The position numbers were made by a program, and so were the translations under genes. DNA of 64,000 nucleotides, from NCBI GenBank assembly GCA_048213135.1, contig PS015010.1, positions 496,001 to 560,000 on the forward strand. The letters run 5' to 3'. A model generated the notes under the pieces. The model had not been told where the DNA came from. It did no database searches and saw only the letters and a list, made by a program, of their open reading frames with translations. Shown here in pieces: positions 3,707 through 62,724 of this stretch. This stretch comes from Reclinomonas americana ATCC 50394 (Eukaryota). Every line of letters starts with the position of its first letter. Within the stretch, counting starts at the first letter, position 1.

Positions 3707-3738
3707 TAAAATTAGAAATTCAAAAGTGAAAAGTCAAA
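3707..3738 (-). promoter_or_regulatory. Bacteroidota sigma-70 promoter for polX (TTTG-N20-TAATTTTA)
   Basis: -7-like box at 3707-3714 ends 4 nt before the ATG; TTTG at 3735-3738 lies inside a TTTTGAN 7-mer array. Confidence 0.55.
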
Positions 3739-3826
3739 ACGAACCCGGACGGGTAAAACGGGAGAGGAGGAGGTGCCGGCTGGCCTGAAAAGCCTTGTTT
3801 GAAGCGGGTTCCGGAGGTATATAAAG

Positions 3827-3856
3827 TAAAAGTCCCGGTATAAACCGGGACTTTTA
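3827..3856. terminator. Intrinsic terminator after the histone-like gene
   Basis: TAAAAGTCCCGGT-ATAA-ACCGGGACTTTTA perfect hairpin. Confidence 0.85.
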
Positions 3857-3883
3857 ATATTTTGCTTTTGCAAAAAGCTAAGA

Positions 3884-4060
3884 TTATTTTTTCTTAGCAG
3901 CGGCTTTTTTAGGAGCAGCTTTCTTAGCAGCTTTTTTAGGAGCAGCTTTTTTAGCGGCTTTTTTAGGAGCAGCTTTTTTAGCGGCTTTTTTAGGAGCGGC
4001 TTTCTTAGCAGCAGCTTTTTTAGGAGCAGCTTTTTTTGCAGCTTTTTTCTTTGTTGCCAT
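3884..4060 (-). CDS. 58-aa Lys/Ala-rich histone H1-like protein (not in ORF track)
   Basis: Manual translation MATKKKAAKKAAPKKAAAKKAAPKKAAKKAAPKKAAKKAAPKKAAKKAAPKKAAAKKK*. A-rich start context, synonymous variation between repeats, downstream terminator. Confidence 0.88.
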   Translation of the reverse strand: MATKKKAAKKAAPKKAAAKKAAPKKAAKKAAPKKAAKKAAPKKAAKKAAPKKAAAKKK

Positions 4061-4093
4061 TTTTTTAAATTTAATTGGTTAGTAAATAATACT

Positions 4094-4124
4094 TAAAAGT
4101 AAAAATATTTTTTAAACTACCAAA
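4094..4124 (-). promoter_or_regulatory. Putative promoter of the histone-like gene (TTTG-N19-TACTTTTA)
   Basis: Matches the Bacteroidota -33/-7 layout with one mismatch in the -7 box. Confidence 0.5.
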
Positions 4125-4141
4125 AAAAATTATAAAAAATG

Positions 4142-4408
4142 TTAAGCCGTAACTTCTACTGCGTTAACAGAGATAACGGTTTTATCACCTTTGGTTTTTC
4201 TGAATTCAACCAGTCCGTCAGTGAGTGCGAAGATGGTGAAGTCCCTTCCAACGCCAACGTTTTTACCAGGATGGTAAACAGTACCACGCTGACGAACGAT
4301 GATGTTACCGGCGAGCGCAGGCTGACCACCATAAATTTTAACACCTAACCTTTTGCTTTGTGAATCTCTGCCGTTCTTTACGGAACCTTCACCTTTTTTG
4401 TGTGCCAT
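4142..4408 (-). CDS. rpmA: 50S ribosomal protein L27
   Basis: [24 protein letters not shown]...IIVRQRGT signature. Confidence 0.98.
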
Positions 4409-4484
4409 TGTAAAATGTATTTATTAATTGATTTGTTAACGGATCTCCTGATAATGTCTTACGAAGTAAGATCACAAAAGATCA

Positions 4485-5696: not shown

Positions 5697-5777
5697 AAAG
5701 AAAGACGAACTGCAGCATGACCGGCAAGCATCAATTATTCAACAGGACAGTACCGTAATTCGTAACTTTATTTCTTC

Positions 5778-8252
5778 ATGCAGGAAACAGGCACCTCACT
5801 ATTCAATACGGAAGCAACAGCATGGGCGGAAGTGATACTGCCGCTGGCGCTGCCAACTACCTATACTTATGCAATCCCCGATGAACTGCTGGCAAAAGCC
5901 CAACCGGGATGCCGGGCGGAAGTCGTATTTGGCCGTAATAAAAAATATGCCGGTGTTATTCGTTCCATAACCAGCGAACGCCCGGGTTACGAAACCAAGC
6001 CTCTGCTTAATGTGCTGGACGATGAACCGGTAGTATATCCCCGCCAGCTGCAACTGTGGAAATGGCTGAGCGAATACTATATGTGCAGTGAAGGAGAGGT
6101 AATGGCCGCGGCACTGCCCACGCATTTTAAACTCAGCAGCGAAACCATACTGATATATAATGAAGCCATCGGCGACGATTTCTCATCGCTTGATGATGAA
6201 GAGTTTCTTGTGGCGGAAGCGCTGCTGTTAAAAAAAGAACTGCGCTTATCCGAAGTGCAGCAGATACTGGATGTTACCCATGTATACCCGCTGGTGAAAC
6301 GCCTGATCGATCAACAGGTGTGCCTGGTATGGGAAGCCATGGATGAACGTTATAAAATAAAACAGGCCACTTATATTTCATTGCACCCCGACTACCGGGA
6401 TGAAGACCATCTTTCGGAACTGCTGAACAACTGGTCAAGGGCACCCAAACAAATGGAACTCCTGCTGGCTTACCTGCACCTGCAAAAAACAGAAGGAGAG
6501 GTCATGCAGCCCGAACTTCTTAAAAAATCCGGTGCTACCGCTGCGCAACTGAAGGGGCTCGTGGACAAAAATATTTTGATTGCGGAGAAAAGGGCCGTTG
6601 ACCGCATCAGCAGCCTGCCGCCCGTTTTTAATATTGATTTTGAGCTGAGTCCCGCACAGCAGGAAGCACATGAAAAAGTAAGGAACGGACTCCTCAACAA
6701 ACCGGTATGCCTGTTACATGGTATCACCGGCAGCGGTAAAACGCAGGTCTATATCAAACTGATTGAGGAATATTGCCGTGGCGACAGGCAGGTACTGTAC
6801 CTGCTGCCCGAGATCGCACTGACGGCACAGATCATACGCCGTTTGCAAAAACATTTTGGCGGCAACATCGCTATCTATCATTCCAAGTTCAACAACAATG
6901 AAAAAGTGGAGTTGTGGAATAAGATACGGACCGGCGCCATCAAGATCGTACTGGGAGCCAGGAGCGCACTCTTCCTGCCTTTCCGCGAACTGGGGCTTAT
7001 TATAGTGGATGAAGAGCATGACCCGTCGTACAAACAACAGGACCCCGCGCCACGCTATAATGCACGTGATGCGGCCATTTACTATGCAAACCTGTGTAAG
7101 GCCAAAGTACTGCTGGGCAGCGCTACACCTTCCCTGGAAAGTTATTTTAACGCGGAACAGGATAAGTATGCCCTGGTGGAACTGAACGAACGTTATGGCG
7201 GCATCGAACTGCCGGAAACCACCATCATCGACACCAGGCAAAGCACTAAGAAAGGCAAACTGATGATCAGCCCCGCATTGCAGGAAGCCATGCAGCAAAC
7301 GCTGGATGCCGGTAAACAGGTGATCCTGTTTCAGAACAGGCGGGGCTATAATCCTTACCTCATCTGCGGCGTATGCGGTTTCATTCCCCAATGTACACAT
7401 TGCGATGTATCGCTTACCCTGCATAAGTTCAGCAATAAACTGCATTGCCATTATTGCGGAAGTACCTATCCCAAACTGGTGACCTGCCCGGCCTGTGGCA
7501 GTAACGACTGGCTGGAAAAGAATTTCGGTACAGAAAAAATAGAAGAACAACTGGAAGCGGATTTTGAAAAATACAAAGTGGCCCGCATGGATGTGGACAG
7601 TGTTCGTGGTAAAACAGCGCACGATAACCTCATCTCTTTATTTGAACAGCACCGGCTCGATATACTGGTAGGTACACAAATGGTGGTAAAAGGCCTCGAT
7701 TTTGATAAGGTAAGCCTGGTAGGTATACTGGATGCCGACGGGTTGCTGGGCTTTGCCGATTTCAGGGTGAATGAACGGGCTTTCCAGCTGATGGAACAGG
7801 TGAGTGGACGGGCAGGCCGCAAACAGGAGCGGGGCAAAGTAATGATACAGGCCACCAATACCAAACACCCGGTACTGCAACTGGTGCAACAACACGACTA
7901 TCTCAGTTTCTTCCGTATGGAACTGGCGAACAGGCAGCATTTTTTCTACCCGCCGTTCAGCCGCCTCGTACAACTTACTTTAAAACATAAGGATAAGGAC
8001 CTCACCGGCCGTGCCGCGGAACGACTGGTACAATCATTGAAGCAGGACCTGAAGGATTATGTGATCGGTCCCGCAGCGCCTGTCGTGAACCGCGTCCGCA
8101 ACCAATACCTCATGGAAATACTCATTAAGCTGCCCAAAGAACCGGGCATGAGTATTGCCTATAAAAAAGTGATACGTAACCATATCAACCTGGTGCTGTC
8201 TGACAAAGCGTATAAGCCTGTGCAGGTAGTGGTGGATGTTGATCCTAATTAA
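5778..8252 (+). CDS. priA: Primosomal protein N' (replication restart helicase)
   Basis: GITGSGKT, LLPEIALT, DEEH, four CxxC pairs, QVSGRAGR, C-terminal DVDP. Confidence 0.97.
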   Translation: MQETGTSLFNTEATAWAEVILPLALPTTYTYAIPDELLAKAQPGCRAEVVFGRNKKYAGVIRSITSERPGYETKPLLNVLDDEPVVYPRQLQLWKWLSEYYMCSEGEVMAAALPTHFKLSSETILIYNEAIGDDFSSLDDEEFLVAEALLLKKELRLSEVQQILDVTHVYPLVKRLIDQQVCLVWEAMDERYKIKQATYISLHPDYRDEDHLSELLNNWSRAPKQMELLLAYLHLQKTEGEVMQPELLKKSGATAAQLKGLVDKNILIAEKRAVDRISSLPPVFNIDFELSPAQQEAHEKVRNGLLNKPVCLLHGITGSGKTQVYIKLIEEYCRGDRQVLYLLPEIALTAQIIRRLQKHFGGNIAIYHSKFNNNEKVELWNKIRTGAIKIVLGARSALFLPFRELGLIIVDEEHDPSYKQQDPAPRYNARDAAIYYANLCKAKVLLGSATPSLESYFNAEQDKYALVELNERYGGIELPETTIIDTRQSTKKGKLMISPALQEAMQQTLDAGKQVILFQNRRGYNPYLICGVCGFIPQCTHCDVSLTLHKFSNKLHCHYCGSTYPKLVTCPACGSNDWLEKNFGTEKIEEQLEADFEKYKVARMDVDSVRGKTAHDNLISLFEQHRLDILVGTQMVVKGLDFDKVSLVGILDADGLLGFADFRVNERAFQLMEQVSGRAGRKQERGKVMIQATNTKHPVLQLVQQHDYLSFFRMELANRQHFFYPPFSRLVQLTLKHKDKDLTGRAAERLVQSLKQDLKDYVIGPAAPVVNRVRNQYLMEILIKLPKEPGMSIAYKKVIRNHINLVLSDKAYKPVQVVVDVDPN

Positions 8253-8365
8253 TTACGAATTACAAATTATGAATTACGAATTATGGGATCACATAAGTGT
8301 AGCGCTAACTATTTACTCACCTGCAGCAGAATTCTCTTGTAATTCGTAATTTGTAATTCGTAATT
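8251..8365. repeat. Inverted pair of 7-mer arrays: (AATTACG)x5 - 52-nt spacer - (CGTAATT)x4
   Basis: Degenerate copies at 8251-8285 and 8338-8365 are reverse complements of each other. Confidence 0.9.
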
Positions 8366-8373: not shown

Positions 8374-9408
8374 GTGGAAATAGAAAATAACATATCGCTG
8401 CAACCTTACAATACATTTGGTATTGATGTGAAGGCCCGGTATTTTTCAAGATTCAATAATTTTGGGGAGTTGCAGGAACTGGCAGCATTCCGCGAAAAAG
8501 AGGAACTGCCCTGGTTGATACTGGGCGGCGGCAGCAATATCCTTTTTACAAAAGATGTGGACGGCCTGGCGGTGAAGAATGAGATCCGCGGTATTCATAT
8601 CGTTAAGGAAGATGAACATCACGCCTATGTGCAGGCCGGGGCGGGAGAGAACTGGCACAGCTTTGTACAGTATTGTATTTCCGCAGGATTATCGGGTGTT
8701 GAGAACCTGTCGTTAATACCGGGGAATGTTGGTGCTTCACCCATGCAAAACATCGGTGCTTATGGTGTGGAAATAAAAGATATGTTTCATTCGCTTGAAG
8801 CCTTTCATGTCGATGAAAAGAAAATGCACCAGTTCAGTCTTAATGATTGTGAATTCGGTTACCGCGAAAGTGTATTTAAGCGCCGGTATAAAGACCAGTT
8901 CGTGATCTGTTCCGTTACCTATCGTTTGAATAAACAACCGGTCTTCAATACTTCCTATGGCGCCATTGTACAGGAGCTGGAGAAGATGGGTGTGCAGGAC
9001 CTCAGTGCAAAAGCCATATCCGAAGCCGTCATCCGCATCCGCCAGTCCAAACTCCCCGACCCTAAGGTGACCGGCAATGCAGGAAGTTTTTTCAAAAACC
9101 CGGAAGTAACAAAAGAGTTATATCTCGGGTTAAAAGAACAATATCCAGACCTGGTGGGTTTCGACCTGCCGAATGGCAACGTTAAACTGGCGGCAGGCTG
9201 GCTCATTGAGCATTGTGGCCCGGCAGAAGGACAGAGCTGGAAAGGTTACCGCAAAGGTGATGCAGGTTGTCATGCCCGGCAGGCACTGGTGCTGGTGAAT
9301 TACGGACATGCTTCCGGGGAAGAAATATATAATTTAAGCACCGCTATTTTGCAAAGTGTGCTGGAGAAATTCGGTGTTGTACTGGAAAGGGAAGTGAATG
9401 TGGTATAA
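8374..9408 (+). CDS. murB: UDP-N-acetylmuramate dehydrogenase
   Basis: LGGGSN, IPGNVGASPMQNIGAYG, GYRES.FK, GNAGSFFKNP, LEREV; GTG start. Confidence 0.97.
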   Translation: MEIENNISLQPYNTFGIDVKARYFSRFNNFGELQELAAFREKEELPWLILGGGSNILFTKDVDGLAVKNEIRGIHIVKEDEHHAYVQAGAGENWHSFVQYCISAGLSGVENLSLIPGNVGASPMQNIGAYGVEIKDMFHSLEAFHVDEKKMHQFSLNDCEFGYRESVFKRRYKDQFVICSVTYRLNKQPVFNTSYGAIVQELEKMGVQDLSAKAISEAVIRIRQSKLPDPKVTGNAGSFFKNPEVTKELYLGLKEQYPDLVGFDLPNGNVKLAAGWLIEHCGPAEGQSWKGYRKGDAGCHARQALVLVNYGHASGEEIYNLSTAILQSVLEKFGVVLEREVNVV

Positions 9409-9502
9409 TTACGAATGACGAATTACGAATGCCGCAGGATTCGGTAAGCGCAATCATAACCTGTCGCAGGATTCGTAATTCATCATTTGAAAATTCGTAA
9501 TT
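9407..9502. repeat. Inverted pair of AATTACG / CGTAATT 7-mer arrays between convergent genes
   Basis: Arrays at 9407-9434 and 9467-9502, with an 11-bp direct repeat CGCAGGATTCG at 9433 and 9465. Confidence 0.85.
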
Positions 9503-11029: not shown

Positions 11030-11467
11030 TTAATAATCGGAAGTTGTAACAATTTTAAATTTATATATCCCTTTCTGTTTAAATGCTTCTTTCAGATTTC
11101 GAAAGGATTCTCTTTTGCCTAAAGCCATATCACCTCTTACCATTACAGACTCCGGCATTTTACTCATATCCAGGTGATATTGCTGTTCCAGGCTGTCAAA
11201 CGCTTTCCTGAGATTCTCCGTTAAAGGCGGAGTTACGTGTATATAATTCTGTTCGTTTATCGAACTGTCATATTTGACCCAAATGGAGGTATCACTTTTT
11301 ACCAGGATAAACACGCAGTAACTACCGGGTTTCTGTTTGGATGAAACGCTTTTAGGGGTTTCTACGCTTACACTTTCGGGTGGCCTTTCATAATTACTGC
11401 ACCTGCAGACTGTAAGCAACAGCAAGCCAAAGCTAAAGCCCCGCAGGCTCCATAATCTATAATTCAT
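11030..11467 (-). CDS. Hypothetical exported protein with ExbD-like C-terminal region
   Basis: Hydrophobic N-terminus ending in VCRC (possible lipoprotein); VMVRGD...FRNLKEAFKQKGIYKFKIVT resembles the ExbD/TolR periplasmic domain. Confidence 0.55.
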   Translation of the reverse strand: MNYRLWSLRGFSFGLLLLTVCRCSNYERPPESVSVETPKSVSSKQKPGSYCVFILVKSDTSIWVKYDSSINEQNYIHVTPPLTENLRKAFDSLEQQYHLDMSKMPESVMVRGDMALGKRESFRNLKEAFKQKGIYKFKIVTTSDY

Positions 11468-11485
11468 AATTCTTAATTCCTAATT
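11451..11485. repeat. Five degenerate CNTAATT 7-mers overlapping the start of the 145-aa ORF
   Basis: cataatc tataatt cataatt cttaatt cctaatt; reads AATTANG on the minus strand directly after the vWA stop. Confidence 0.8.
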
Positions 11486-12603
11486 CAATAAACCGTTTTC
11501 CTTTTCCCGCTTTCAAAATCCTTAAAAATGAAAGCTCCCAGCCTGTCGAGCGAAGCAAAGAAGGCCTTGCCGTTATTGCATTCGGTGAATTCCTGTACAA
11601 AACGCTGCAGGTACGGGTCCGATGCGATCATAAAGGTAGTGATGGGGATCTTCAGTTTCTTACATTGTGTGGCCAGGCTCATACAGCGGTTGAGTATCTT
11701 CCTGTCGGCACCCCAACTGTTTTTGTAATATTTCTTCCCGATCTTAAGACAGGTGGGCTTGCCATCGGTGATCATAAAGATCTGTTTATTGGGATTACGC
11801 CTTTTCCTCAGCAGGTCCATCGCCAGTTCCAGTCCTGCAACTGTATTGGTATGATAGGGTCCCACCTGCAAATAGGGCAGGTCCTTGATCTCGATAGGCC
11901 AGGCGTCGTTGCCAAATACCACGATGTCGAGTGTGTCTTTGGGGTACTTGGTTTTGATGAGTTCGCTCAGCGCCATGGCTACTTTCTTGGCAGGCGTTAT
12001 CCTGTCTTCACCATAGAGGATCATGGAGTGGGATATATCGATCATCAGCACCGTTGAGGTCTGCGATTTGAAATCAGTTTCCCTGATCTCCAGGTCATCC
12101 TCATGCATACGGAAACTATCGATGCCATGATTGATCTGTGCATTGCGGATGGAACTGGTAAAATCGATCTGTTCCATGGTATCCCCAAACTGGAAGGGCC
12201 GGGTTTCGGGATTAATCTCATCGCCGCCGCCGGGCTTGAACGTGTTGTGGTTGCCCTGCTTACTTTTTTTAAGTTTCCCGAATATTTCTTCGAGGCTCTT
12301 CTTACGAATTCCCTGCTCTGTCTTTGAAGTGATCTTAATGTCGCCATTAGGCCTGTCTTCATCGATATATCCTTTCTCTTTCAGGTCCTCAATAAAATCA
12401 CCGATACCATAATCGCCGTTGGTGAGCTTATATTCTTTATCCAGCTCATTGAGCCACTGCATGGCTTCGTTGAAATCGCCATTGGTATACGTGAGTAACT
12501 GGAGAAAAAGATCCAGGAGTTTTTCGAAAGGAGACTTACCCTGCGCATCCGGATCGAATTTTGAAAAATGAAATCCCCGCATCTGATTGGTGGCAACAGT
12601 CAT
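11485..12603 (-). CDS. vWA domain-containing protein (start may be 12582)
   Basis: MIDAS motif DISHS, TN, ITDG. Confidence 0.9.
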   Translation of the reverse strand: MTVATNQMRGFHFSKFDPDAQGKSPFEKLLDLFLQLLTYTNGDFNEAMQWLNELDKEYKLTNGDYGIGDFIEDLKEKGYIDEDRPNGDIKITSKTEQGIRKKSLEEIFGKLKKSKQGNHNTFKPGGGDEINPETRPFQFGDTMEQIDFTSSIRNAQINHGIDSFRMHEDDLEIRETDFKSQTSTVLMIDISHSMILYGEDRITPAKKVAMALSELIKTKYPKDTLDIVVFGNDAWPIEIKDLPYLQVGPYHTNTVAGLELAMDLLRKRRNPNKQIFMITDGKPTCLKIGKKYYKNSWGADRKILNRCMSLATQCKKLKIPITTFMIASDPYLQRFVQEFTECNNGKAFFASLDRLGAFIFKDFESGKRKTVY

Positions 12604-16936: not shown

Positions 16937-16985
16937 AATTACGAATTACGAATTACGAATTACGAATTACGAATTACGAATCACG
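16937..16985. repeat. (AATTACG)x6 perfect plus one imperfect copy
   Basis: Direct reading; overlaps the last codons and stop of the OsmC gene. Confidence 0.95.
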
Positions 16986-17389
16986 ATCTCGGTCTTCATG
17001 GTTGCGAAGTGGGAGAACATGGCGTATACACCGCAATATTTTTCCTGTGAAAGGTTGACTGCTTTTTCCATTTTGGGCCGGTCACTTTCCGCCATGGCGA
17101 TGGTGTAGGTGAGGGTGACGTGGTTGTATATTTTTGGGTGTTCTTCGGTGAGTGTGGCCTCTACCTGTATGGTGAAGTCGCGGAAGGGGACTTTCATTTT
17201 ATTCAGGATAGATACGATGTCAATGCCGGTGCAGCCCGAAAGAGAGGCCAGCATCAGCCTTTTGGGGCTTGGGCCACTGTCAGAACCGCCATCATCGGGT
17301 GTACTGTCGGTAATAACTGTGTGGCCGTTAATATCAGAAGAAAAAGCCATACCGGAGGTAAAACGGCTTTGGATGGAATGAGTAGTCAT
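16967..17389 (-). CDS. OsmC/YhfA family protein
   Basis: GPSPKRLMLASLSGC...LSQEKYCGV two-Cys pattern. Confidence 0.9.
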   Translation of the reverse strand: MTTHSIQSRFTSGMAFSSDINGHTVITDSTPDDGGSDSGPSPKRLMLASLSGCTGIDIVSILNKMKVPFRDFTIQVEATLTEEHPKIYNHVTLTYTIAMAESDRPKMEKAVNLSQEKYCGVYAMFSHFATMKTEIVIRNS

Positions 17390-17580
17390 TGAAAATGAGT
17401 GTTTTATAATAACTGAGTGTAATACAAAATTATAAATACTAAATCTTAAATATTAAATAATACATCCCGAATCGGCCTTTATTTCTGTATTTATACACAT
17501 CTGGTCCTTAAATGTGGGTACTTTTGCCGGGAAAATGAAAAATTCTTATTGAATAAGTGCCGATTATTCAATTTAAACCT

Positions 17581-26731: not shown

Positions 26732-28039
26732 ATGAAGACAAAAACGCTACGAAAAGACAAGGTCAATATCATTACGCTGGGCTGCAGTAAGAATATGGTA
26801 GACAGCGAGGTACTCAGCGGTCAGTTGAAGGCCAATGAAATTGACGTAGTGCACGAGAACAGCAAAAGGGATCACAATATCGTGATCGTGAACACCTGCG
26901 GTTTTATTGAAAAAGCCAAGGAAGAAAGCATCAATACCATACTCGACCAGGTAGACCTGAAGAAGAAAGGCAAACTGGATAAAGTATATGTTACCGGCTG
27001 CCTGAGCGAACGGTATAAGAACAACCTGGAAGAAGAAATTCCGGAAGTGGATGCCTATTTCGGTACGATGGAGTTACCTGCCATCCTGAAACGTTTTGAC
27101 GCTGATTACAAAGCCGACCTTATTGGTGAGCGCCTGCTGTATACACCTGATCATTATGCCTACATGAAGATCAGCGAAGGCTGTAACCGTACCTGTTCTT
27201 TCTGCGCTATACCGCTCATGCGTGGCAAGCATGTGAGCCGTCCGATAGAATCACTGGTAGATGAAGCGAAACGCCTGGTTGATCGTGGTGTAAAAGAGGT
27301 GATGCTGATCGCACAGGAGCTGACCTACTACGGACTCGACATTTATAAAAAAAGGGAATTGCCCAAATTGCTGCATGCACTGGCCGATGTAAAAGGACTG
27401 GAATGGATACGACTGCATTACGCTTACCCGTCAAAATTCCCGATCGAGATCATCGACGCTATCAAAGAAAGAGAAAATATCTGCAATTACCTTGATATGC
27501 CCCTGCAGCATGCGGCCAACAATATGCTCAAAGCCATGAAGCGCCAGATCACCCGTGAGGAAATGGAAGATCTTGTTGCGGAGATCAGGGACCGCATTCC
27601 GGGTATTTGCCTGCGTACCACGCTGATAGCGGGTTTCCCGGGTGAGACAAGAGATGATGTGGAAGAGCTGAAAACCTTTTTGCAAAAAATGCGTTTCGAC
27701 CGTGTGGGCATTTTTACTTACAGCCACGAAGAAAGTACCAGCGCCTACGAACTGGAAGATAATATACCCGCCGAAGAAAAAGAGGAAAGGGCGCAGGAGA
27801 TCATGGAAGTGCAGCAGGAGATCAGCCTGGAGAAAAACCAGGAAAAAGTGGGGCAGACTTTCAAAGTACTGATCGATAAAAAAGAGGCTGGCCGCTACCT
27901 GGGCCGTACCGAATTCGACAGCGTGGAGGTAGATAACGAAGTGATCATTCAAAGTAAAAAAAGACTAACGCCGGGCGAGTTTGTAAACGTAAAGATCACG
28001 AAGGCGTATGACTATGATATTGAGGGGGAAGTGGTGTAA
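26732..28039 (+). CDS. rimO: Ribosomal protein S12 methylthiotransferase
   Basis: LGCSKNMVDSE, NTCGFI, radical-SAM CNRTCSFC, TRAM domain; TAACTTTG box at 26712-26719 supports the start at 26732. Confidence 0.96.
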   Translation: MKTKTLRKDKVNIITLGCSKNMVDSEVLSGQLKANEIDVVHENSKRDHNIVIVNTCGFIEKAKEESINTILDQVDLKKKGKLDKVYVTGCLSERYKNNLEEEIPEVDAYFGTMELPAILKRFDADYKADLIGERLLYTPDHYAYMKISEGCNRTCSFCAIPLMRGKHVSRPIESLVDEAKRLVDRGVKEVMLIAQELTYYGLDIYKKRELPKLLHALADVKGLEWIRLHYAYPSKFPIEIIDAIKERENICNYLDMPLQHAANNMLKAMKRQITREEMEDLVAEIRDRIPGICLRTTLIAGFPGETRDDVEELKTFLQKMRFDRVGIFTYSHEESTSAYELEDNIPAEEKEERAQEIMEVQQEISLEKNQEKVGQTFKVLIDKKEAGRYLGRTEFDSVEVDNEVIIQSKKRLTPGEFVNVKITKAYDYDIEGEVV

Positions 28040-31132: not shown

Positions 31133-31135
31133 ACC

Positions 31136-39303: not shown

Positions 39304-39342
39304 TGAGTCTTGAGTATAAAGTATCAAGTAGTGAGTATAAAG
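39301..39342 (+). repeat. TAGTGAG-like 7-mer array x6 starting at the hppD stop
   Basis: tagtgag tcttgag tataaag tatcaag tagtgag tataaag; reverse complement of the array upstream of hppD. Confidence 0.7.
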
Positions 39343-55018: not shown

Positions 55019-55536
55019 CAGGAAAGTTTGGAAGTGAATGTACAACCGGAAATGAAAAAGATAAGTTAATACAAGGGCTGCTTTTCCGGGTAAGTTATAG
55101 GGCTTTTACCCTAACTGGGTAATTTGGATTAATTTAATCGCTTGTCTTTCTGAAAAACATATTCCCAAATTGGTGATAAGAGAAAACGTAATAGAATCTG
55201 TTATTGCCATCGTTGGTGGCATCAAACGTGACCTGAATTTAAGTTTTAGAGTTCTTGAATGATTTTCACAGGTTATTGAATCGTTCTTTCAAGTTGCTGA
55301 CCCATCCTTACAAGTTCCTCTGCCCCCGAATAAATTCCCACATTACCCCAATCCCTGCCACCCCCAAGCCACTCTATTCACCCGGCATCAATCATTCGTA
55401 ATTAATAATTGATAATTAACCCTCCCAGAAAAAAACATCCTTCTCCCATAAACCGGCTTAAAAACAACATTTAACGTCCCAACTTCAATAATTTCGGTAT
55501 TTTCACGTTACCAATGCTGAAAAGACCGTTGTATTG

Positions 55537-56325: not shown

Positions 56326-56776
56326 GAAAGTCAAAATTCAAAAGTAAAAAGTCAAAATTTGGGCCCCTTTTAGCGGCTGCACATGAAATTGTAATTAATG
56401 CCATTCAATTGTTTATTAATCAATTATTTGTGTGTCTTGTCTTGTATTTTTTATTTAGTTGAGTGAATTTTCACGCAAGGCTAACTAAGGAGCAATGGTG
56501 CAAAGTTATTTTGTTGTCGGTTGTCTATTTTTTAACACGATCATCATAGATTGCTACGTCCGCGAGGTGGCAGGTCAAGCTGGATAAGCGCTGCTGGTCA
56601 TCAGACCAGGCACAACGGCGTTCTAAGGTGTAGCATCCGTCCAATCTTCAAATCATCAAATTTTCAATTGAGTGAAGTTTCACGCAAGGCGTAGTATCGT
56701 TATCAGCAATCTCCAAATCCTCAAATCTTCAAATCTTCAAATCTCCACATCCGCACATCCACACATCCACACATCA
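56326..56776. repeat. Repeat-dense intergenic region
   Basis: AAGTCAA array 56326-56358; 23-bp direct repeat at 56459 and 56668; ATCTTCAA arrays 56642-56670 and 56707-56743; ATCCACAC array 56744-56776. Confidence 0.85.
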
Positions 56777-58036: not shown

Positions 58037-58042
58037 ATATTA

Positions 58043-58183
58043 ATGTGATGATTTGAAAATTTGAAGATGTGAAAATGATCTTTATAGCATTGTGTTGATC
58101 CTACACTACCAGCTATGGGGTTTATGGTTTAATCCTTACTTTTGGTCACAAATCTAAATTCGCTAATCGTAAATCCGAAAATT
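58043..58183. repeat. Arrays abutting the divergent lysC and fbp starts
   Basis: ATTTGAAA-like 8-mers at 58043-58077 and AAATCNN 7-mers at 58148-58183. Confidence 0.7.
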
Positions 58184-58188: not shown

Positions 58189-59226
58189 ATGAGCATTAAC
58201 CGCAGAGTACAGACCCTCGACGAATTCACCATACAACAGATGAGAGACTTTCCGCAGGCCACGGGCGAACTGGCGGGGCTTTTACGCGATATTGGCCTGG
58301 CGGCCAAACGGGTAAATGTGGAGGTGAACAAGGCGGGGCTGGTTGACATCCTTGGCGATGCGGGCAGTGTGAATGTACAGGGCGAGGAGGTGAAGAAACT
58401 CGACATTTATGCCAACGAGCAATTCATTGGCGTACTCCGCCACGGCATCAGTTGCGCCGGTATCGGCAGCGAAGAGATGGATGACATCGTGATCTTCGAC
58501 GACGAGGTGAGCAACAAAAGCAAATACGTATGCCTGTTCGACCCGCTCGACGGCAGCAGCAATATAGATGTCAACGTATCCATTGGCACGATCTTTAGTG
58601 TTTACCGAAGGGTAAGCGAGATTGGTAAACCGGCAACGGAGGCTGACTTTCTGCAGCCGGGCAACCGGCAGGTGGCGGCGGGTTATATTATATATGGTTC
58701 GTCTACTATGCTGGTATACGCGACTAAAAGAGGGGTGAACGGATTTACACTCGACCAGGCCATCGGCGAATTCAGCCTCAGCCACCCGGATATTGTTTGT
58801 CCGCCCAGCGGAAAGATCTATTCCGTTAACCACGGTAATTTCTTCCAGTACGACGAAGGCGTGAAACAATACATCACCGCCTGCCAGAAAAAGGACAAAA
58901 CCAACGGGGGGCCTTACACCCAGCGTTATATCGGCAGTATGGTGGCCGACGTGCACCGTAACCTGCTCAAAGGCGGCATCTTTATGTATCCTGCCATTAC
59001 CGATAAACCCAAAGGCAAACTGCGTCTGCTGTACGAGTGCAACCCCTGCGCCTTCATCATTGAAAGGGCGGGAGGTACGGCCACCAACGGCAAGCAGCGT
59101 ATACTGGATGTTCAGCCTACGGCCCTGCACCAGCGTACGCCCATGTTCATCGGCAGTAAAGAGATGATGGAGGAACTGGAAAAGTATATGAAAGAAGCGG
59201 AAACTGAGTCAAAAGTAAAAAGTTAA
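58189..59226 (+). CDS. fbp: Class 1 fructose-1,6-bisphosphatase
   Basis: DPLDGSSN, RYIGSMVADVHR, GKLRLLYECNP. Confidence 0.97.
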   Translation: MSINRRVQTLDEFTIQQMRDFPQATGELAGLLRDIGLAAKRVNVEVNKAGLVDILGDAGSVNVQGEEVKKLDIYANEQFIGVLRHGISCAGIGSEEMDDIVIFDDEVSNKSKYVCLFDPLDGSSNIDVNVSIGTIFSVYRRVSEIGKPATEADFLQPGNRQVAAGYIIYGSSTMLVYATKRGVNGFTLDQAIGEFSLSHPDIVCPPSGKIYSVNHGNFFQYDEGVKQYITACQKKDKTNGGPYTQRYIGSMVADVHRNLLKGGIFMYPAITDKPKGKLRLLYECNPCAFIIERAGGTATNGKQRILDVQPTALHQRTPMFIGSKEMMEELEKYMKEAETESKVKS

Positions 59227-59427
59227 AAGTAAAAACCGGTGTCTGCCGGTTACAGTTCTTTGTGTTTAAAAAGAGATGTCACGCCAGGACCGCAAAGGAG
59301 CAAGGCCGCAAGGTTAAAGACATGGCTATTTCTCTTTCTGCTATTCTCGTAAAACATTATTACCTATTGCTTATTCAATATTAGATAACACAATATTCCC
59401 TATTCAATCTAAAATATAAAATCAATC

Positions 59428-59907: not shown

Positions 59908-59933
59908 TGAACAGCCACCTTATTTAATCCCGC

Positions 59934-60695
59934 ATGCAGAACAAGATCATTTCCGTTACGGAACTCAAAAAGAATTACGGCAGTTTCGAAGCCGTAAAAG
60001 GCATTTCTTTCCACGTGTTTGAAGGCGAAATATTCGGCCTGCTGGGCCCCAATGGCGCCGGTAAATCCACCACGCTGGAGATCATTGAAACCCTGCGGCA
60101 AAAGACCAGCGGTGTAGTGGAAGTATGCGGCATCAACCTTGATAAAGATCCTGACGGTATTAAGAGGCTTATTGGTGTTCAACTGCAGACTTCCGGCTTC
60201 TACCCCGGACTTACGCTCATAGAACTGGTGGACCTGTTTGGCGGGTTGTACAACCAGGAAGTGAACGCCATTGACCTGCTGAAAATGGTGAACCTGGAGG
60301 ATAAGGCCAAAAACAAGTATAAAGAACTCAGTGGCGGGCAAAAACAGCGTTTCTCCATTGCCACCACGCTCATCAACCATCCCCGTATCATTTTCCTGGA
60401 TGAACCCACTACCGGTCTCGATCCGCAGGCCCGGCGCAACCTGTGGGACCTCATCCGCAACATCAGGGCCAAGGGTACCACGGTCATCATTACCACGCAT
60501 TATATGGACGAAGCCGAACAGCTCTGCGACCGTATCGCCATCATGGACGAAGGCCGCATCATTTCCCTCGATTCACCTGATAAAATGATCGACGACCTGG
60601 TAACCAGCGGTTTTGAACGGCCCAAACAGGTAAAAGCTGCCAACCTGGAAGATGTTTTCATACATTTGACAGGCAAAGAGATCAGGGAATCCTGA
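59934..60695 (+). CDS. ABC transporter ATP-binding protein (ABC-2/DrrA type)
   Basis: GPNGAGKST, LSGGQ, FLDEPTTGLD, TTHYM. Confidence 0.94.
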   Translation: MQNKIISVTELKKNYGSFEAVKGISFHVFEGEIFGLLGPNGAGKSTTLEIIETLRQKTSGVVEVCGINLDKDPDGIKRLIGVQLQTSGFYPGLTLIELVDLFGGLYNQEVNAIDLLKMVNLEDKAKNKYKELSGGQKQRFSIATTLINHPRIIFLDEPTTGLDPQARRNLWDLIRNIRAKGTTVIITTHYMDEAEQLCDRIAIMDEGRIISLDSPDKMIDDLVTSGFERPKQVKAANLEDVFIHLTGKEIRES

Positions 60696-60737
60696 CCTTT
60701 TCGTTTTTATATTATATCATCAAAGAATAATCACTTC

Positions 60738-61499
60738 ATGAAGCAATTTGTAATCTGTGTACTGGCACTCAGTTCGGTGCTGTCCGTATCCGCCCAAACC
60801 TCCAAGACAAAAACGCCGACAAAAGCGGTCGTTGCCGCCAAAAAGGCTTTTGTTATGCAGAGTCTCATCGACAGTTTCAGCTATGCTGCCGGTTTTAATG
60901 TAGGCACTAACATGAGGGAGCAGGGTATTACCTCCGCCAACCTGGCCCTGATGCAAAAAGGGCTTGACGACGCGTTGAAAAAAGCCGCCTGTTCACTTAC
61001 TCCGGAACAGGTAAGTTCTGTACTGCAAAAACAAATAGAGATCTTCAGCAAAGCCAAAAGCGACCAGGAAAAGAAAGCCGGTATCGCTTACCTGCTCAGC
61101 AACAGGCAGAAAACCGGCGTAACCACGCTGCCCAGCGGACTTCAGTACGAGATCATCAAAAGAAGTGATGCTGCCACCAATAAACCCAGGGCAATCGATA
61201 CGGTGGTTGTGAACTATATCGGTACCACCATCGACGGGAAAGAATTCGATAACTCTTATAAAAGGGGAGAACCGGCAGTATTCCCGGTAGGCGGCGTTAT
61301 CAAAGGCTGGACAGAGATCCTGCAGCTGATGCCTGTAGGTTCACACTGGAAAGTGACCATCCCCAGCGAACTGGCTTATGGCGAATACCCTCCTCCGGGC
61401 AGTGGTCTCGCTCCCAATTCCGTACTCATTTTCGAGATCATCCTCGAAGGTGTTAAACCGGCAGCCGGAGATGTGAAAGCGCCTGCACCCAATCAATAA
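60738..61499 (+). CDS. FKBP-type peptidyl-prolyl isomerase (FklB/Mip-like)
   Basis: Signal peptide, SYAAG N-domain, SGLQY, FDNS, VIKGW, IPSELAYG. Confidence 0.94.
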   Translation: MKQFVICVLALSSVLSVSAQTSKTKTPTKAVVAAKKAFVMQSLIDSFSYAAGFNVGTNMREQGITSANLALMQKGLDDALKKAACSLTPEQVSSVLQKQIEIFSKAKSDQEKKAGIAYLLSNRQKTGVTTLPSGLQYEIIKRSDAATNKPRAIDTVVVNYIGTTIDGKEFDNSYKRGEPAVFPVGGVIKGWTEILQLMPVGSHWKVTIPSELAYGEYPPPGSGLAPNSVLIFEIILEGVKPAAGDVKAPAPNQ

Positions 61500-61507
61500 A
61501 TCAATTC

Positions 61508-62032
61508 ATGGAAGATCTTCGTTATCCAATAGGGAAGTATATCGTTCAGCCTTTTTCCGACCAGCAATGGAAGGAATGGCTGATCGATATACAGTTCCTG
61601 CCCCAGCATATAGAGAACGCCATCCTCAACCTGGATGAAGCGCAACTGAACACACCTTACCGCGACGGCGGATGGACGGTGAAACAGGTAGTGCACCATG
61701 TGGCTGACAGTCATATGAACGCTTATATCCGTTTCAAACTCGGCCTTACAGAGGATACGCCTGCCATCAAACCTTACGACGAAGTGGCCTGGGCCGAAAT
61801 GGTGGATACACGTAACCTGCCCATCAATATTTCACTCACGCTTATCCATAGCCTGCACACCCGCTGGTACGAAATACTCCGCCACATGACCCGTGAAGAA
61901 CTGGACCGGAAAATATTTCATCCCGAACGTAAAACGGAGATGACCCTTTGGGACCTGTTGGGATTGTATGCCTGGCACAGCCGCCATCATACGGCGCACA
62001 TCACTTCTCTTCGGGAACGCATGAAATGGTAA
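61508..62032 (+). CDS. bstA: YfiT/DinB-family bacillithiol transferase
   Basis: LRYPIG, YRDGGWTVKQVVHHVADSH, WHSRHH. Confidence 0.9.
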   Translation: MEDLRYPIGKYIVQPFSDQQWKEWLIDIQFLPQHIENAILNLDEAQLNTPYRDGGWTVKQVVHHVADSHMNAYIRFKLGLTEDTPAIKPYDEVAWAEMVDTRNLPINISLTLIHSLHTRWYEILRHMTREELDRKIFHPERKTEMTLWDLLGLYAWHSRHHTAHITSLRERMKW

Positions 62033-62041
62033 ATTAAGACA

Positions 62042-62596
62042 ATGGACTCCAATCCGGATATGAATTGGAAGACGCTTTCTTCCCGTTACCTCAGCGATCA
62101 TATTTATTTCACCGCAAGGGAAGACCGTTGCGAACAACCCGACGGGCGTATCGTAGAGCAATACTTTGTGGTGGAGCTGCCGCCCTGTGTATGTGCCGTG
62201 GCGCTTACGGATGACAACCAGGTGATCATGGTAGAGCAATACCGCCATCCCATACAGGAAACTATACTGGAAATACCCGGAGGTTTTATCGATGCCGGCG
62301 AAACACCCGAACAGGCCGTGGCCCGGGAGCTGATGGAAGAGACAGGGTATCGTTTTTCTTCTTTCGAGTACCTCGGCAAACTGGCCGCCAACCCCGGCAT
62401 TCTTGATAACTATACCCATTTATACCTCGCGAAAGGCGGCGTAAAAATCGCGGAACAATCACTTGATGGTAATGAAGCCATCCGGCTGAAACTGTTGTCC
62501 ATAGCAGAACTGGAATCATTGCTGAAAGAGAACAAGATCAAACAGGCACTGCATGCGGGATGTATTTTTTATGCTTTGGCGAAATTGAAAGGGTGA
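62042..62596 (+). CDS. NUDIX hydrolase (ADP-ribose pyrophosphatase-like)
   Basis: QYRHP, Nudix box GGFIDAGETPEQAVARELMEETG. Confidence 0.92.
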   Translation: MDSNPDMNWKTLSSRYLSDHIYFTAREDRCEQPDGRIVEQYFVVELPPCVCAVALTDDNQVIMVEQYRHPIQETILEIPGGFIDAGETPEQAVARELMEETGYRFSSFEYLGKLAANPGILDNYTHLYLAKGGVKIAEQSLDGNEAIRLKLLSIAELESLLKENKIKQALHAGCIFYALAKLKG

Positions 62597-62724
62597 TGTG
62601 CGAATGTGTGAATATCTGGATGTGCGGATATGCAGGTATGAAAATTGGAAGATTTGAAAATCTGAAAATGAATGAGTCCTTCTCTTCACTCAGGATAAAA
62701 TTCGTAATTCGTAATTAATAATTG
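62596..62724. repeat. 8-mer arrays after the NUDIX stop plus REP-like/CGTAATT composite at the folC end
   Basis: ATGTGCGA-like then ATTTGAAA-like units at 62596-62670; 62677-62716 is the inverted copy of 30991-31030. Confidence 0.85.

Follow-up and report, generated by a model that had tools for sequence, protein, structure and literature searches.

The DNA under study is a 64-kb Chitinophagaceae stretch, referred to below as the window. Its 38 spacers amount to 5,933 non-coding bases, in which TRF called 20 tandem arrays with a period of 7 or 8 nt, compared with 0.66 ± 0.84 in shuffled sequence (100 dinucleotide shuffles, none of which gave more than three arrays). TRF-called arrays are found in 16 of the 38 spacers, contain about 3–7 units (median about 4), and are mostly intergenic: 21 of 26 merged arrays lie for the most part in non-coding DNA, whose share of the window is just 9.4%. 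A previous sequence-only reading had described arrays of unrelated unit families at gene boundaries. TRF calls a period-7/8 array at nearly every position it had named, and the families were found as described: AATTACG, AAAGTCA (a rotation of AAGTCAA), AATGTGCG, ATTTGAAA and AGTATAA/TAGTGAG. Short length or degeneracy kept the arrays at 5754, ~9468–9500, ~31090–31135 and 37988 from being called by TRF, but they are visible in a print-out of the spacers. The gene names used in that reading agree with Pfam, and the 166-aa ORF that it named DUF2004 has no Pfam match.

We designate as B the purine-leaning, C-poor orientation of an array and as A its reverse complement. The arrays listed below were called by TRF unless another source is indicated. 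An AAAGTCA array (×3.4; 3716..3739, + strand), B on the + strand, lies 13 nt from the polX start and reads TGACTTT towards polX. Two CGTAATT-type units (5754..5767, − strand), A on the + strand and read directly from the sequence, are followed by the priA start after 10–12 nt. In the priA-murB spacer, an AATTACG B arm (×4.7; 8251..8283, + strand) overlaps the priA TAA stop by 2 nt, and a GTAATTC A arm (×3.9; 8339..8365, − strand) ends 8 nt ahead of the murB start. The murB TAA stop is in turn overlapped by a B arm of AATGACG/AATTACG units (×3.6; 9407..9431, + strand), whose partner is a degenerate CGTAATT-type A arm from the print-out (9468..9500, − strand) that ends at the stop of a convergent AAA ATPase gene. 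A CATAATT array (×5.3; 11451..11487, − strand) occupies the 17-nt gap between the stop of a vWA gene and the next ORF of the operon. An AATTACG run (×7.1, 97% matches; 16937..16986, + strand) begins 16 nt past the EamA stop and also makes up the end of the convergent OsmC ORF, contributing its final ~20 nt and its stop; an AT-rich AATACTA array (×5.6; 17421..17459, + strand) is located in the divergent OsmC/L28 spacer.

Between rimO and bshC, a AATGTGCG B arm (×7.5; 28039..28098, + strand) begins within the rimO TAA stop, and an ATTCATA/ATTCGTA A arm (×4.4; 28198..28228, − strand) ends 11 nt ahead of the bshC start; the spacer center (28100..28197, no strand assigned), with an ATTTTGA array at 28160–28190, varies between strain runs. 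Past the stop of the 166-aa ORF, an AAAAATC(A) B arm (×4.4; 30359..30391, + strand) meets a heterologous CATTCACA A arm (×4.5; 30398..30433, − strand) that adjoins the purE stop. On the other side of purE, 36 nt from its start, lies an AATTACG array that is B on the + strand (×3.6; 30984..31008, + strand), and a degenerate 8-mer A arm of the CATATTCR family, detected in the print-out (31090..31135, − strand), adjoins the stop of a tolC-like gene. A AATTTGAC array (×4.4; 37896..37930, + strand) overlaps the called purK start. A degenerate A array of CTACTCA type, with TATATTTG immediately after it (37988..38010, − strand; print-out), is an inverted copy of the TAGTGAG/AGTATAA array after hppD (39304..39342, + strand), in which the hppD TAG stop is part of the first unit.

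Further downstream, a TAATTAA-type array of ambiguous orientation (55393..55419) precedes the L,D-transpeptidase gene by 114 nt and was counted as a violation of the polarity described below. An AAAGTCA B arm (×4.4; 56327..56357, + strand) starts 19 nt after the stop of that gene, and three adjoining 8-mer A arrays, AATCTTCA, CAAATCCT and CACATCCA (56643..56775, − strand), extend into the lysC stop. These share their family with the ATTTGAAA/ATGTGAAG 8-mers located 14 nt from the lysC start, B on the + strand (58042..58077, + strand). AGTCAAA/AGTAAAA units (×4.1; 59207..59235, + strand) cover the final 20 nt and the stop of fbp. From within the NUDIX TGA stop, ATGTGTGA (×3.6) is followed by TGAAAATT (×3.9; both in 62596..62669, + strand), the latter passing the spacer midpoint and being counted as a violation. 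Lastly, AATTCGT (×2.6; 62699..62716, − strand), which is ACGAATT in the folC sense, is located within the 3′ end of the folC ORF.

The sequence-only reading had proposed that, in the sense of the neighboring gene, B follows stop codons and A precedes starts. The orientation bias is real, but it is not a rule of starts versus stops or of transcription. A simpler rule suffices: on either strand, each spacer opens with a B array, and the complement A follows. As a B…A unit is its own reverse complement, "B after stops, A before starts" results automatically from B being 5′ and A being 3′ in the spacer, whatever the direction of the genes. When orientation was scored independently of unit family, as purine skew relative to the spacer midpoint, 19 of 23 window arrays obeyed the rule (binomial p = 0.0026); three array rows, each with only 2.3–2.6 copies, were left out as coding. 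The violators are the arrays at 11451, 16937, 55399 and 62639, and the EamA/OsmC exception at 16937, for which the rule fails with respect to OsmC, is thus as genuine as had been suspected.

Orientation is not random in related genomes either. In 400 kb of one relative, G236, neighboring arrays without a large ORF between them were arranged B-to-A in 19 cases, A-to-B in two, AA in four and BB in two. In 392 kb of another, G288, complementary pairs were B…A in 21 cases and A…B in five. Thirty loci taken from other genomes gave 32 scorable AATTACG arrays, of which 26 read away from the closest ORF end (15/17 at starts, 11/15 at stops); five further arrays lay within a called ORF. AATTACG has as many G as C, so composition is an imperfect description of polarity. 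Its gene-proximal edge has a preferred phase, with 20 of 41 arrays beginning AATTACG (chi-square p = 1e-7), a bias perhaps inflated as a degenerate unit stands ahead of ~5 of the 20; no such phase is seen at the ragged distal edge (p = 0.47).

Arrays also abut gene ends. Eight of the 13 stop-adjacent arrays of the window overlap the stop codon or start 1–2 nt inside, and abutment was found in 17 of 46 cases in G236 (14% under uniform placement) and in 32 of 75 in G288 (11.5%). At starts, several A arrays end 8–14 nt from the start codon. The claim that several of them end exactly at the −7 box did not hold, as an exact TAnnTTTG directly after the array is present at hppD only.

One might view the arrays as neutral slippage microsatellites piling up under weak selection. 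Their restriction to non-coding DNA would fit, as would an 8-letter strain difference over a stretch with an 8-mer array (see below) and the 7-nt indels that distinguish Cyanothece strains according to the portion of PMC4679880 that deals with them. This view was already disfavored, and we find it hardly credible in the face of strong polarity, stop-codon abutment at about 3–4 times uniform placement, a phase bias confined to one edge, the presence of one and the same unit, AATTACG, across 23 of the 401 Chitinophagaceae genomes, and inverted arms that are locus-specific around enclosed genes.

Folding predictions separated the two-armed spacers into two kinds. The priA-murB spacer (−40.3 kcal/mol, z = −6.9), an empty element, is predicted to form a 31-bp stem with the arrays at 8251 and 8339 as its 5′ and 3′ arms, and the murB-AAA spacer also folds stably (−30.7 kcal/mol, z = −4.0). 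These are the only true hairpins among the two-armed spacers of the window, and 10 of 19 pairs are of this kind in G236. The remaining B…A pairs join unrelated families; the heterologous pair between the "DUF2004" ORF and purE folds worse than 199 of 200 shuffles, and a single arm alone is unstructured. Hence, a pure RNA-hairpin code, put forward as an alternative along with a binding code, does not extend to the heterologous pairs, and stem formation is excluded as the function of about half of the arrays. Nor would a stem alone account for the constant 5′ position of the G-rich or purine-leaning arm.

Comparison of filled and empty sites was positive at the orthologous murB/AAA spacer, where three states were detected: a plain hairpin, a cargo-less array hairpin, and arrays around a gene. 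In G002 (190 nt) and G003 (118 nt) the spacer is array-free and has an ordinary hairpin; in the window (92 nt) it consists of arrays and a loop only; in G236 (810 nt), arrays starting from both stop codons enclose a 119-aa four-helix-bundle gene. The arrays of that whole G236 cassette pair around the ORF (z = −6.2, 20 shuffles; predicted stem of ~48 bp). At this site the arrays take up the spacer from the stop codon onward and are not set within older spacer DNA. Among strains diverged by ~1–2.5%, differences likewise fall at array boundaries and junctions. In run X5, the array-bounded segment 28100–28197 is swapped for 15 other letters, and the sequence before 28198 differs in runs X3 and X7, the latter being also 8 letters shorter over 27682–28135, a stretch with an 8-mer array. 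Run X4 has nine extra letters at the B/A junction 30390–30397 and one at 30352; the extra letter at 30352 is shared by X5, whose spanning contig has 10 gaps at 30390–30397. Array pairs may be insertion scars.

A link between such arrays and four-helix-bundle or GxxExxY genes had been suggested by the sequence-only reading, and it is real in five related Chitinophagaceae genomes. There, the arms enclose small single genes, with names confirmed, that encode either an Avd-like four-helix-bundle protein (PF05635/TIGR02436; 3–16 matches per genome) or a GxxExxY PD-(D/E)XK protein (PF13366/TIGR04256; 0–10 matches). The enclosed genes look selfish, and the arrangement resembles that of the intervening sequences of rRNA genes. 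Inverted complementarity between the arms of a locus exceeded the 95th percentile of arms from mismatched loci at 36 of 42 cargo loci (25/29 PF05635, 11/13 PF13366), and G exceeded C in the 5′ flank of 28 of 29. Arms are complementary at each locus and their unit varies from locus to locus, with dozens of distinct unit sequences inside a single genome. Cargo paralogues are highly divergent (median identity 28%), and similarity of cargo proteins was not associated with arm family (rho = 0.07; 74 of 500 permutations equal or better); a recent copy-and-paste spread of whole cassettes is therefore unsupported. Arrays far outnumber cargo genes, which are present in just two of 19 B…A pairs of the G236 sample. 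All elements of the window are cargo-less, and a search agreed that no four-helix-bundle or GxxExxY gene is located in its 64 kb. As PF05635 genes occur in 317 of 401 sampled genomes of the family, their presence does not mark array-bearing genomes.

The view that the arrays are the two ends of B…A inverted units is supported by these observations. The interpretation we lean towards, with some reserve, is that they are cargo-less arms belonging to strand-symmetric repeat elements that lie between genes, form a genome-wide family and are akin to the intervening sequences (IVS) of 23S rRNA. A purine-leaning, C-poor arm of 3–7 degenerate 7–8-nt units would begin at, or a few bases from, a gene end and head to the spacer center, where it would meet an arm of opposite polarity arriving from the other gene end. 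By analogy, the layout matches that of an S23p-bearing 23S rRNA IVS placed between protein genes. In read-through transcripts, complementary arms would form a long double-stranded stem, perhaps a site of RNase III-type processing, 3′-end formation or insulation, for which the 23S IVS is the experimental precedent. Heterologous B/A pairs might be products of arm turnover, and would be intrinsically unstructured because each arm has in effect a three-letter alphabet. Nor would elements simply be added to the ancestral spacer; they would take its place, along with that of its ordinary terminator hairpin. Against the stem, cleavage 8–14 nt from a start codon would leave a very short leader.

In the Coxiella 23S IVS, as outlined in the relevant part of PMC4990558, an S23p ORF occurs together with a terminal inverted-repeat stem of 28 bp, which RNase III cuts, and with tandem GACAGAT heptamers that vary between strains. 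Like the cassettes of the relatives, the IVS described there for Coxiella and Leptospira have a four-helix-bundle ORF in the loop of a long terminal inverted-repeat stem, with tandem heptamers of strain-variable copy number by the ORF; their site, however, is helix 25 or 45 of 23S rRNA, while the elements studied here are found between protein-coding genes. The latter also differ in having tandem arrays as arms, in being mostly cargo-less, and in that half of them have non-complementary arms. In the REP/BIME and REPIN-RAYT systems of proteobacteria, short repeats likewise occupy intergenic DNA by the hundreds, frequently form inverted pairs near gene 3′ ends, and flank a few protein genes. However, REP units are imperfect palindromes of 20–40 nt, from one or a few families per genome and associated with a Y1 transposase, while the units described here are 7–8-nt direct repeats from many families, with PF05635 or PF13366 genes as cargo.

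TAACTGA itself gave no match here, and the units of cyanobacterial STRRs are different from those found here. Orientation-biased intergenic heptamer arrays, TAACTGA among them, have been published (MacGregor 2015, PMC4679880), and in the sections of that paper that concern us they occur in Bacteroidetes, Cyanobacteria and Beggiatoaceae. The likeness is close: tandem 7-nt units are nearly all intergenic, in Flexibacter litoralis one orientation is found ahead of start codons and the opposite one downstream of a stop, spacers are shared with other heptamers, close relatives have shorter, repeat-free spacers, and strain indels come in 7-nt steps. Those sections differ in describing one unit and proposing translational control, and they hold no symmetric B…A rule, paired complementary arms, stop abutment or enclosed four-helix-bundle/GxxExxY genes. 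The STRRs, in the corresponding part of PMC2670836, are 7-bp tandem spacer repeats of unknown function that can form intergenic hairpins; they belong to another phylum, and that part mentions neither a polarity rule nor a link to cargo. We found no published description of the cargo link or of the strand-symmetric rule.

Polarity admits other explanations. One, which we regard as unlikely, is a protein-binding code: each array would be a row of DNA or RNA sites for an oligomeric factor, with polarity giving the binding direction relative to the gene. Candidates would be pentameric, positively charged four-helix-bundle proteins or the S1/Csp-type RNA binders proposed for TAACTGA. Arrays of ~3–7 units with a median of ~4 are of the order of a pentamer footprint, isolated arms are unstructured, and AATTACG is recurrent in the family. 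Avd-like pentamers bind nucleic acid, as the pertinent part of a preprint reports (bioRxiv 10.1101/2023.10.23.563531), and factors have been suggested for heptamer repeats in the passages on them by MacGregor (2015) and in a Nostoc recF/recO preprint. However, arm family is unrelated to cargo-protein similarity, units number dozens per genome, and the window has arrays yet no such gene within 64 kb.

A distinctly unlikely alternative is directional de novo synthesis. Here, DNA ends, such as those left by a cargo nuclease, would be extended by repeat addition or slippage, and arrays would grow from gene ends inward until the two arms join head to head in the manner of fused telomeres. The cargo genes would be agents or captured passengers, and the RNA stem a by-product. 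On both sides the strand that is G-rich or purine-leaning has its 3′ end facing the junction, unrelated families meet across gaps of 1–58 nt in G236 (many of 1–13 nt), AATTACG arrays have a preferred phase at the gene-proximal edge only, murB/AAA arrays occupy the spacer from the stop codon, strain differences fall at the junction or center, and the cargo types are an Avd-like and a PD-(D/E)XK fold protein. However, the adding enzyme is hypothetical, the phase bias may be inflated by the ~5 of 20 arrays with a preceding degenerate unit, and the complementary arms of 36 of 42 cargo loci require an extra step of copying or selection. The reverse transcriptase domain RVT_1 is found in only two of the five array-rich genomes and is fragmented in one, although these are MAGs and may be incomplete. 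The same distribution bears on the retroelement connection: cargo PF05635 is homologous or structurally alike to the pentameric four-helix-bundle Avd of diversity-generating retroelements, as portrayed in the portions of PMC10053308 and bioRxiv 10.1101/2023.10.23.563531 devoted to Avd, but no associated reverse transcriptase, template repeat or variable repeat accompanies it here.

A last proposal is that arrays are transcriptional insulators. By analogy with Rho-loading sites, RNA of an array read inward would be C-containing, G-poor and unstructured, and would block incoming polymerases on either strand. We judge it very unlikely: typical Rho loading regions are longer than ~30-nt arrays, G equals C or nearly so in the AATTACG and AAAGTCA families, and an A arm 8–14 nt upstream of a start would also fall in the gene's own leader. 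In its favor, the rule is symmetric at starts and stops, heterologous pairs are structure-poor, and, where 8-mer A arms reach the stops of lysC, purE and tolC, 35–130 nt are rich in C and poor in G.

The tandem arrays of the window are real, and their abundance is far from chance. TRF detected head-to-tail arrays with periods of 7 and 8 (2.6–7.5 copies, 67–100% matches) at nearly every coordinate listed by an earlier, sequence-only reading, and recovered the unit families named there; AATTACG, AAAGTCA and AATGTGCG are among the families of the window. Four sites (5754, ~9468, ~31090 and 37988) fell below the TRF threshold, yet they are plain in the printed spacer sequence. Twenty arrays were found in 5,933 non-coding bases, compared with 0.66 ± 0.84 (maximum 3) in 100 dinucleotide-preserving shuffles, and 21 of 26 merged arrays are mostly intergenic in a window whose non-coding share is 9.4%. 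ORF calling and Pfam also reproduced the gene labels: polX, priA, murB, AAA ATPase, vWA, EamA, OsmC, rimO, bshC, purE, a tolC-like efflux operon, purK, hppD, L,D-transpeptidase, lysC, fbp, NUDIX and folC. According to Pfam and the printed spacers, all the arrays sit between protein genes. A search of the window with Rfam detected neither rRNA nor any other Rfam family, and the interval 56300–56800 yielded nothing relevant besides a chance miRNA match (E = 0.21). Most arrays are degenerate by TRF, and they occur at 5' and 3' gene ends alike.

We denote as B the purine-leaning, C-poor arrays and as A their reverse complement. Two regularities had been proposed from the sequence, namely that B follows stop codons and that A precedes starts. 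B...A reads unchanged after reverse complementation, so the two amount to a single statement. On the + strand, every printed spacer has B on the left and A on the right, whether the flanking genes are tandem, convergent or divergent. The rule can thus be restated: an array reads B outward from any gene end. Hence, the orientation bias stands, but as a symmetry and not as a rule of transcription.

When arrays were scored by purine skew relative to the spacer midpoint, a measure that is independent of the unit family, 19 of the 23 window arrays complied (p = 0.0026), while those at 11451, 16937, 55399 and 62639 did not. Outward orientation was also found in other Chitinophagaceae: among 30 loci picked by an AATTACG x3 pattern, AATTACG was the outward reading in 26 of the 32 arrays that could be scored (15/17 at starts and 11/15 at stops), with five further arrays inside called ORFs left unscored. 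In G236, a related genome with 62 arrays in 400 kb, adjacent arrays without a large ORF between them changed sign from B to A 19 times and from A to B twice, and four AA and two BB cases were also seen. In a second relative, G288 (143 arrays in 392 kb), complementary pairs were arranged as B...A in 21 cases and as A...B in five; four of the latter span whole host genes, and the remaining one is a short-gap exception.

Two other descriptors of orientation were discarded. GC skew is not a universal measure as it fails for AATTACG and AAAGTCA, where G equals C. Scoring by GC skew against the nearest large ORF in G236 gave a mixed outcome (42 arrays G>C outward, 19 C>G outward and 1 tied), so purine skew relative to the midpoint and the order of adjacent arrays were used instead. 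Stop-codon content likewise failed as a unifying rule when the sequences were read: no frame of AATTACG contains a stop and every frame of its complement contains TAA, but the 8-mer families behave in the opposite manner.

The position of the array edges was also examined. In the window, 8 of 13 stop-adjacent arrays overlap the stop codon or start 1–2 nt inside, and start-adjacent arrays mostly end 8–36 nt upstream of the start. Arrays that overlap a stop codon or lie ≤2 nt from it amount to 17/46 in G236 and 32/75 in G288, while uniform placement predicts 14% and 11.5%, respectively; start-adjacent arrays fit the uniform-placement null (3/20 and 7/65). The gene-proximal edge also has a preferred phase: 20 of 41 AATTACG arrays begin exactly with AATTACG (chi-square p = 1e-7), a bias that may be inflated by the degenerate unit found in front of about five of those 20. 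The distal edge is ragged (p = 0.47). Of the A arrays suggested to end at the −7 box, only that of hppD does so, as judged by the exact TAnnTTTG motif.

In certain loci the arrays enter the coding sequence. An AATTACG x7 array provides the final ~20 nt of the OsmC ORF together with its stop codon (16967–16986), and the ORF ends of fbp (59207–59226) and folC (62699–62716) likewise lie within arrays. Changes in array copy number could alter the C-termini of the three products. At a practical level, arrays of this kind mislead ORF callers at gene ends, as in these three genes, and break short-read assemblies.

Unit families appear spatially grouped in the window, with AATTACG at 5754–16986 (priA to EamA) and 8-mers at 28039–31135 (rimO to tolC) and 56643–62669 (lysC to NUDIX); furthermore, genes such as hppD, lysC, priA and murB each have one array family on both sides. 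The family is shared in 11 of 32 near pairs, compared with 20 of 179 far pairs (p = 0.002). Clustering was not significant in G236 (p = 0.09) nor in G288 (p = 0.39), and we consider it a weak lead.

The lineage of the window is Chitinophagaceae, with best identities of 59% for BshC and 78% for PriA. No close relative was found by BshC, whose best identity was 59% in the genome collection and 39% in the metagenome collection, and orthologous regions were therefore compared by family-level synteny and with strain contigs. The AATTACG x3 pattern (≤1 mismatch) was present in 23 of 401 sampled family genomes, with up to 21 matches in one, while a reversed control pattern was present in 8 of 401, with 1–6 matches each. 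The order acyltransferase–priA–murB, followed by convergent AAA and vWA genes, is kept in G236 and in two other related genomes, G002 and G003. In the latter two the murB/AAA spacer is devoid of arrays and contains an ordinary hairpin (190 nt in G002, 118 nt in G003). The spacer of the window (92 nt) consists only of a B arm, a 40-nt loop and an A arm. That of G236 has 810 nt: the TAG codon is directly followed by AAAGCGG x8, a gene for a 119-aa four-helix-bundle protein comes next, and CCGCTTTC arrays extend to the AAA stop. As for the priA–murB spacer, G002 and G003 have a plain one, the window has an array hairpin there, and G236 has arrays plus an extra gene. The idea that the arrays are the ends of cassettes was largely borne out in relatives, and one and the same spacer is plain, cargo-less or filled depending on the genome.

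The cargo of such cassettes belongs to two families, PF05635 (TIGR02436, four helix bundle protein) and PF13366 (TIGR04256, GxxExxY protein), with 3–16 and 0–10 matches per genome, respectively, in the five array-rich genomes searched. A G-rich short-period array lies 5' of the gene and its complement lies 3', and the unit changes from locus to locus. Complementarity between the two arms of a locus exceeded the 95th percentile of mismatched-locus controls in 25 of 29 four-helix-bundle loci and in 11 of 13 GxxExxY loci, and the 5' flank had G>C in 28 of the 29 former. Arm families of the window recur around cargo genes: AAAGTCA at one locus (L056) and the AATGACGG type at another (L065). A link between arrays and these gene families, suggested in the sequence-only reading, proved largely correct in relatives, and the statement of that reading that the window has no such gene was also correct. 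Pfam, profile and tblastn searches found neither a gene nor a recognizable remnant: HMM searches of the window for cargo families gave no E value lower than 0.49, and tblastn, for which 25 four-helix-bundle proteins and 14 GxxExxY proteins of related genomes served as queries, gave a best E of 0.007, within coding genes.

Cargo paralogues are very divergent (median identity, 28%), and their similarity does not track the arm family. Presence of PF05635 is uninformative with regard to AATTACG arrays as the gene is found in 317 of the 401 sampled family genomes (per-genome counts of 11 mean at least 11). In G288, Rfam matched nothing within cargo-sized inner segments; a tRNA and a TPP riboswitch were matched outside them. 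Two B...A pairs of this genome (L123, 9960–10240, and L120, 18568–18872) surround 280–305 nt of GC-rich, apparently structured sequence without four-helix-bundle, GxxExxY or Rfam matches, which may be non-coding cargo or decayed genes. At L120 (contig C39, 18873–19066), an A arm lies ~50 nt upstream of the TPP riboswitch, which Rfam scores at 64.8 bits, so a regulated leader can be preceded by an array. In the window, CGCAAAG/CGCAAGG/CGAAGGA-like runs in the spacers 30948–31135, 56308–56773 and 59227–59427 resemble the GxxExxY arm family of another G288 locus, L108, although neither a complementary arm to match them nor a remnant of a gene was detected.

Folding predictions separate two kinds of spacers. 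The priA–murB spacer (8246–8372) forms a 31-bp stem (−40.3 kcal/mol, z = −6.9), and the murB–AAA spacer (9402–9505) forms a long stem as well (−30.7 kcal/mol, z = −4.0). In the whole G236 cassette the arrays pair over ~48 bp around the ORF, both in the MFE and in the centroid structure (z = −6.2, 20 shuffles). In contrast, the heterologous pair between DUF2004 and purE is unusually unstructured (z = +2.2), and 199 of 200 shuffles fold better. Heterologous pairs are common: of the 19 B...A pairs of G236, ten are complementary and nine join unrelated families. The gap in cargo-less pairs of this genome is 1–58 nt.

Public sequencing runs include relatives in which 0.45–0.75 of sampled 31-mers were present, with divergence estimated at roughly 1–2.5%, and assembled contigs of four runs (X3, X4, X5 and X7) were used to compare strains. 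Three of these, X3, X5 and X7, carry organism labels, which makes it probable that isolates exist. The comparison concerns the contig-covered parts of 19501–39500 and, as it is based on assembled contigs, it cannot show RNA ends. Differences were seen at the arrays:

In X5, 15 other letters take the place of positions 28100–28197, an interval bounded precisely by the 8-mer B array on one side and the ATTCGTA array on the other, and both X3 and X7 have different sequence upstream of 28198. One X7 contig has 8 letters fewer over the stretch with the 8-mer array. In the DUF2004–purE spacer, X4 has 9 extra letters at the B/A junction (30390–30397) and one at 30352; X5 has the extra letter at 30352, with 10 gaps in the spanning contig. 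Junctions thus turn over between strains that are merely ~1–2.5% apart. One contig each of X3 and X4 joins 28092 and 31029 on opposite strands; the side spans only 27–32 letters and is 85% alike. X4 also has a contig that follows the order of the window across 27790–31633. The joint could reflect inversion of the bshC–purE segment between array-bearing spacers in some strains, or else a repeat artefact.

Short-period intergenic arrays such as STRR and TAACTGA repeats, described since about 1990, are not known to have an agreed origin or function. The window arrays resemble this class in being 7-nt (plus 8-nt) direct repeats, intergenic and far above chance; the published heptamer itself is, however, absent, as TAACTGA x2 (≤2 mismatches) gives 0 matches in the window. 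MacGregor 2015 (PMC4679880) describes oriented intergenic TAACTGA heptamers, which in a Bacteroidetes genome are forward before starts and reverse after a stop; according to the same source, other heptamers share these spacers, close relatives can have spacers free of repeats, and strains differ by 7-nt indels. For the STRR repeats of cyanobacteria, intergenic hairpin formation has been stated (PMC2670836). Other classes of elements do not fit. REP/BIME–RAYT (REPIN) elements have a 20–40-nt imperfect palindrome and enclose a Y1 transposase gene, while the window units are 7–8-nt direct repeats and the genes found between arms in relatives are PF05635 and PF13366. A MITE or insertion sequence has terminal inverted repeats common to all copies, and here the arm sequence differs by locus; moreover, inspection by eye of the printed spacers and cargo flanks did not reveal target-site duplication of flanking unique sequence. 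CRISPR arrays have 23–50-nt repeats with unique spacers, and the units described here are contiguous.

The closest architecture is that of the 23S rRNA intervening sequence (IVS). In the Coxiella IVS, RNase III cuts a 28-bp stem formed by the terminal inverted repeats, and tandem GACAGAT heptamers vary in number by strain (PMC4990558). Like an IVS, the complementary pairs of the window have terminal inverted repeats that yield a long stem, a feature that heterologous pairs do not share. Unlike an IVS, which is found in helix 25 or 45 of 23S rRNA and carries an S23p/four-helix-bundle ORF in its loop, the window arrays lie between protein genes and have no such ORF, which is nonetheless present in relatives. 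The arrays are most likely cargo-less arms of strand-symmetric intergenic elements built like S23p-bearing IVSs but located between protein genes. By analogy with the Coxiella IVS, complementary arms in read-through transcripts might form stems for processing, 3'-end formation or insulation. Such stems do not account for heterologous pairs, for a polarity that is universal or for the way in which the elements spread.

A different scenario, which we regard as improbable, is that arms are synthesized in place, directionally from each gene end to the middle of the spacer, with subsequent head-to-head fusion. In-place synthesis would explain the universal polarity, the fixed gene-proximal phase and ragged distal edge, the arrays that start inside stop codons, the encounter of unrelated families across gaps down to 1–13 nt, and the strain differences at the junction. 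Such a process would represent, inside a bacterial chromosome, an equivalent of telomere-like end capping and fusion, and the cargo genes, Avd-like and PD-(D/E)XK, would be either agents or trapped passengers of breaks. Resemblance of PF05635 to the DGR accessory protein Avd has been described (PMC10053308; bioRxiv 10.1101/2023.10.23.563531), PF05635 genes have been found wedged within cas operons (PMC3936711), and PF13366 appears among the PD-(D/E)XK families whose function is unknown (PMC3424549). A reverse transcriptase was rejected as array maker, as RVT_1 was detected in only two of the five array-rich genomes.

The window and its relatives add a grammar to short-period intergenic repeats: B comes before A in each spacer whichever strand is read, and arrays begin at stop codons. 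Two widespread families of small genes whose function is unknown, TIGR02436 (four-helix-bundle/Avd-like) and TIGR04256 (GxxExxY), are enclosed by complementary arms in an architecture that matches the IVS, whose mobility likewise lacks explanation. Within openly accessible full texts, we found no account of array-bracketed cargo, a symmetric polarity rule or abutment to stop codons. If confirmed, these observations would tie STRR-type repeats, IVS elements and solitary Avd-like genes into one system, and would open to testing the question of how transcription units are punctuated or insulated in Bacteroidota.

Repeats of other kinds were also detected in the window. Between polX and the L27/L21 genes, a 58-aa Lys/Ala-rich ORF with repeating KKAAPKKAA motifs (3884–4060, − strand) is built from a 27-nt tandem repeat (TRF, 3899–4048), and its product resembles a basic protein of the DNA-binding or histone-H1-like kind. 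A giant hybrid histidine kinase of 2141 aa (42196–48621) has 11–12 HAMP domains encoded by a 276-nt tandem repeat (42784–45408). Directly upstream of its gene, a perfect 23-nt direct repeat, TATATCCAGGTTGGTATTCATAA x2.1 (42126–42173), may be a regulator binding site, and the adjoining gene on the opposite strand (39396–41861) encodes an 821-aa protein with ice-binding-like beta-roll repeats from a 426-nt repeat (40135–41336). Lastly, the motif CTTTTCCGGTTGACATCTC occurs twice at 53122–53352, ahead of an ECF-type sigma factor gene and reaching its called start (53353), and may represent the duplication of an autoregulated promoter.
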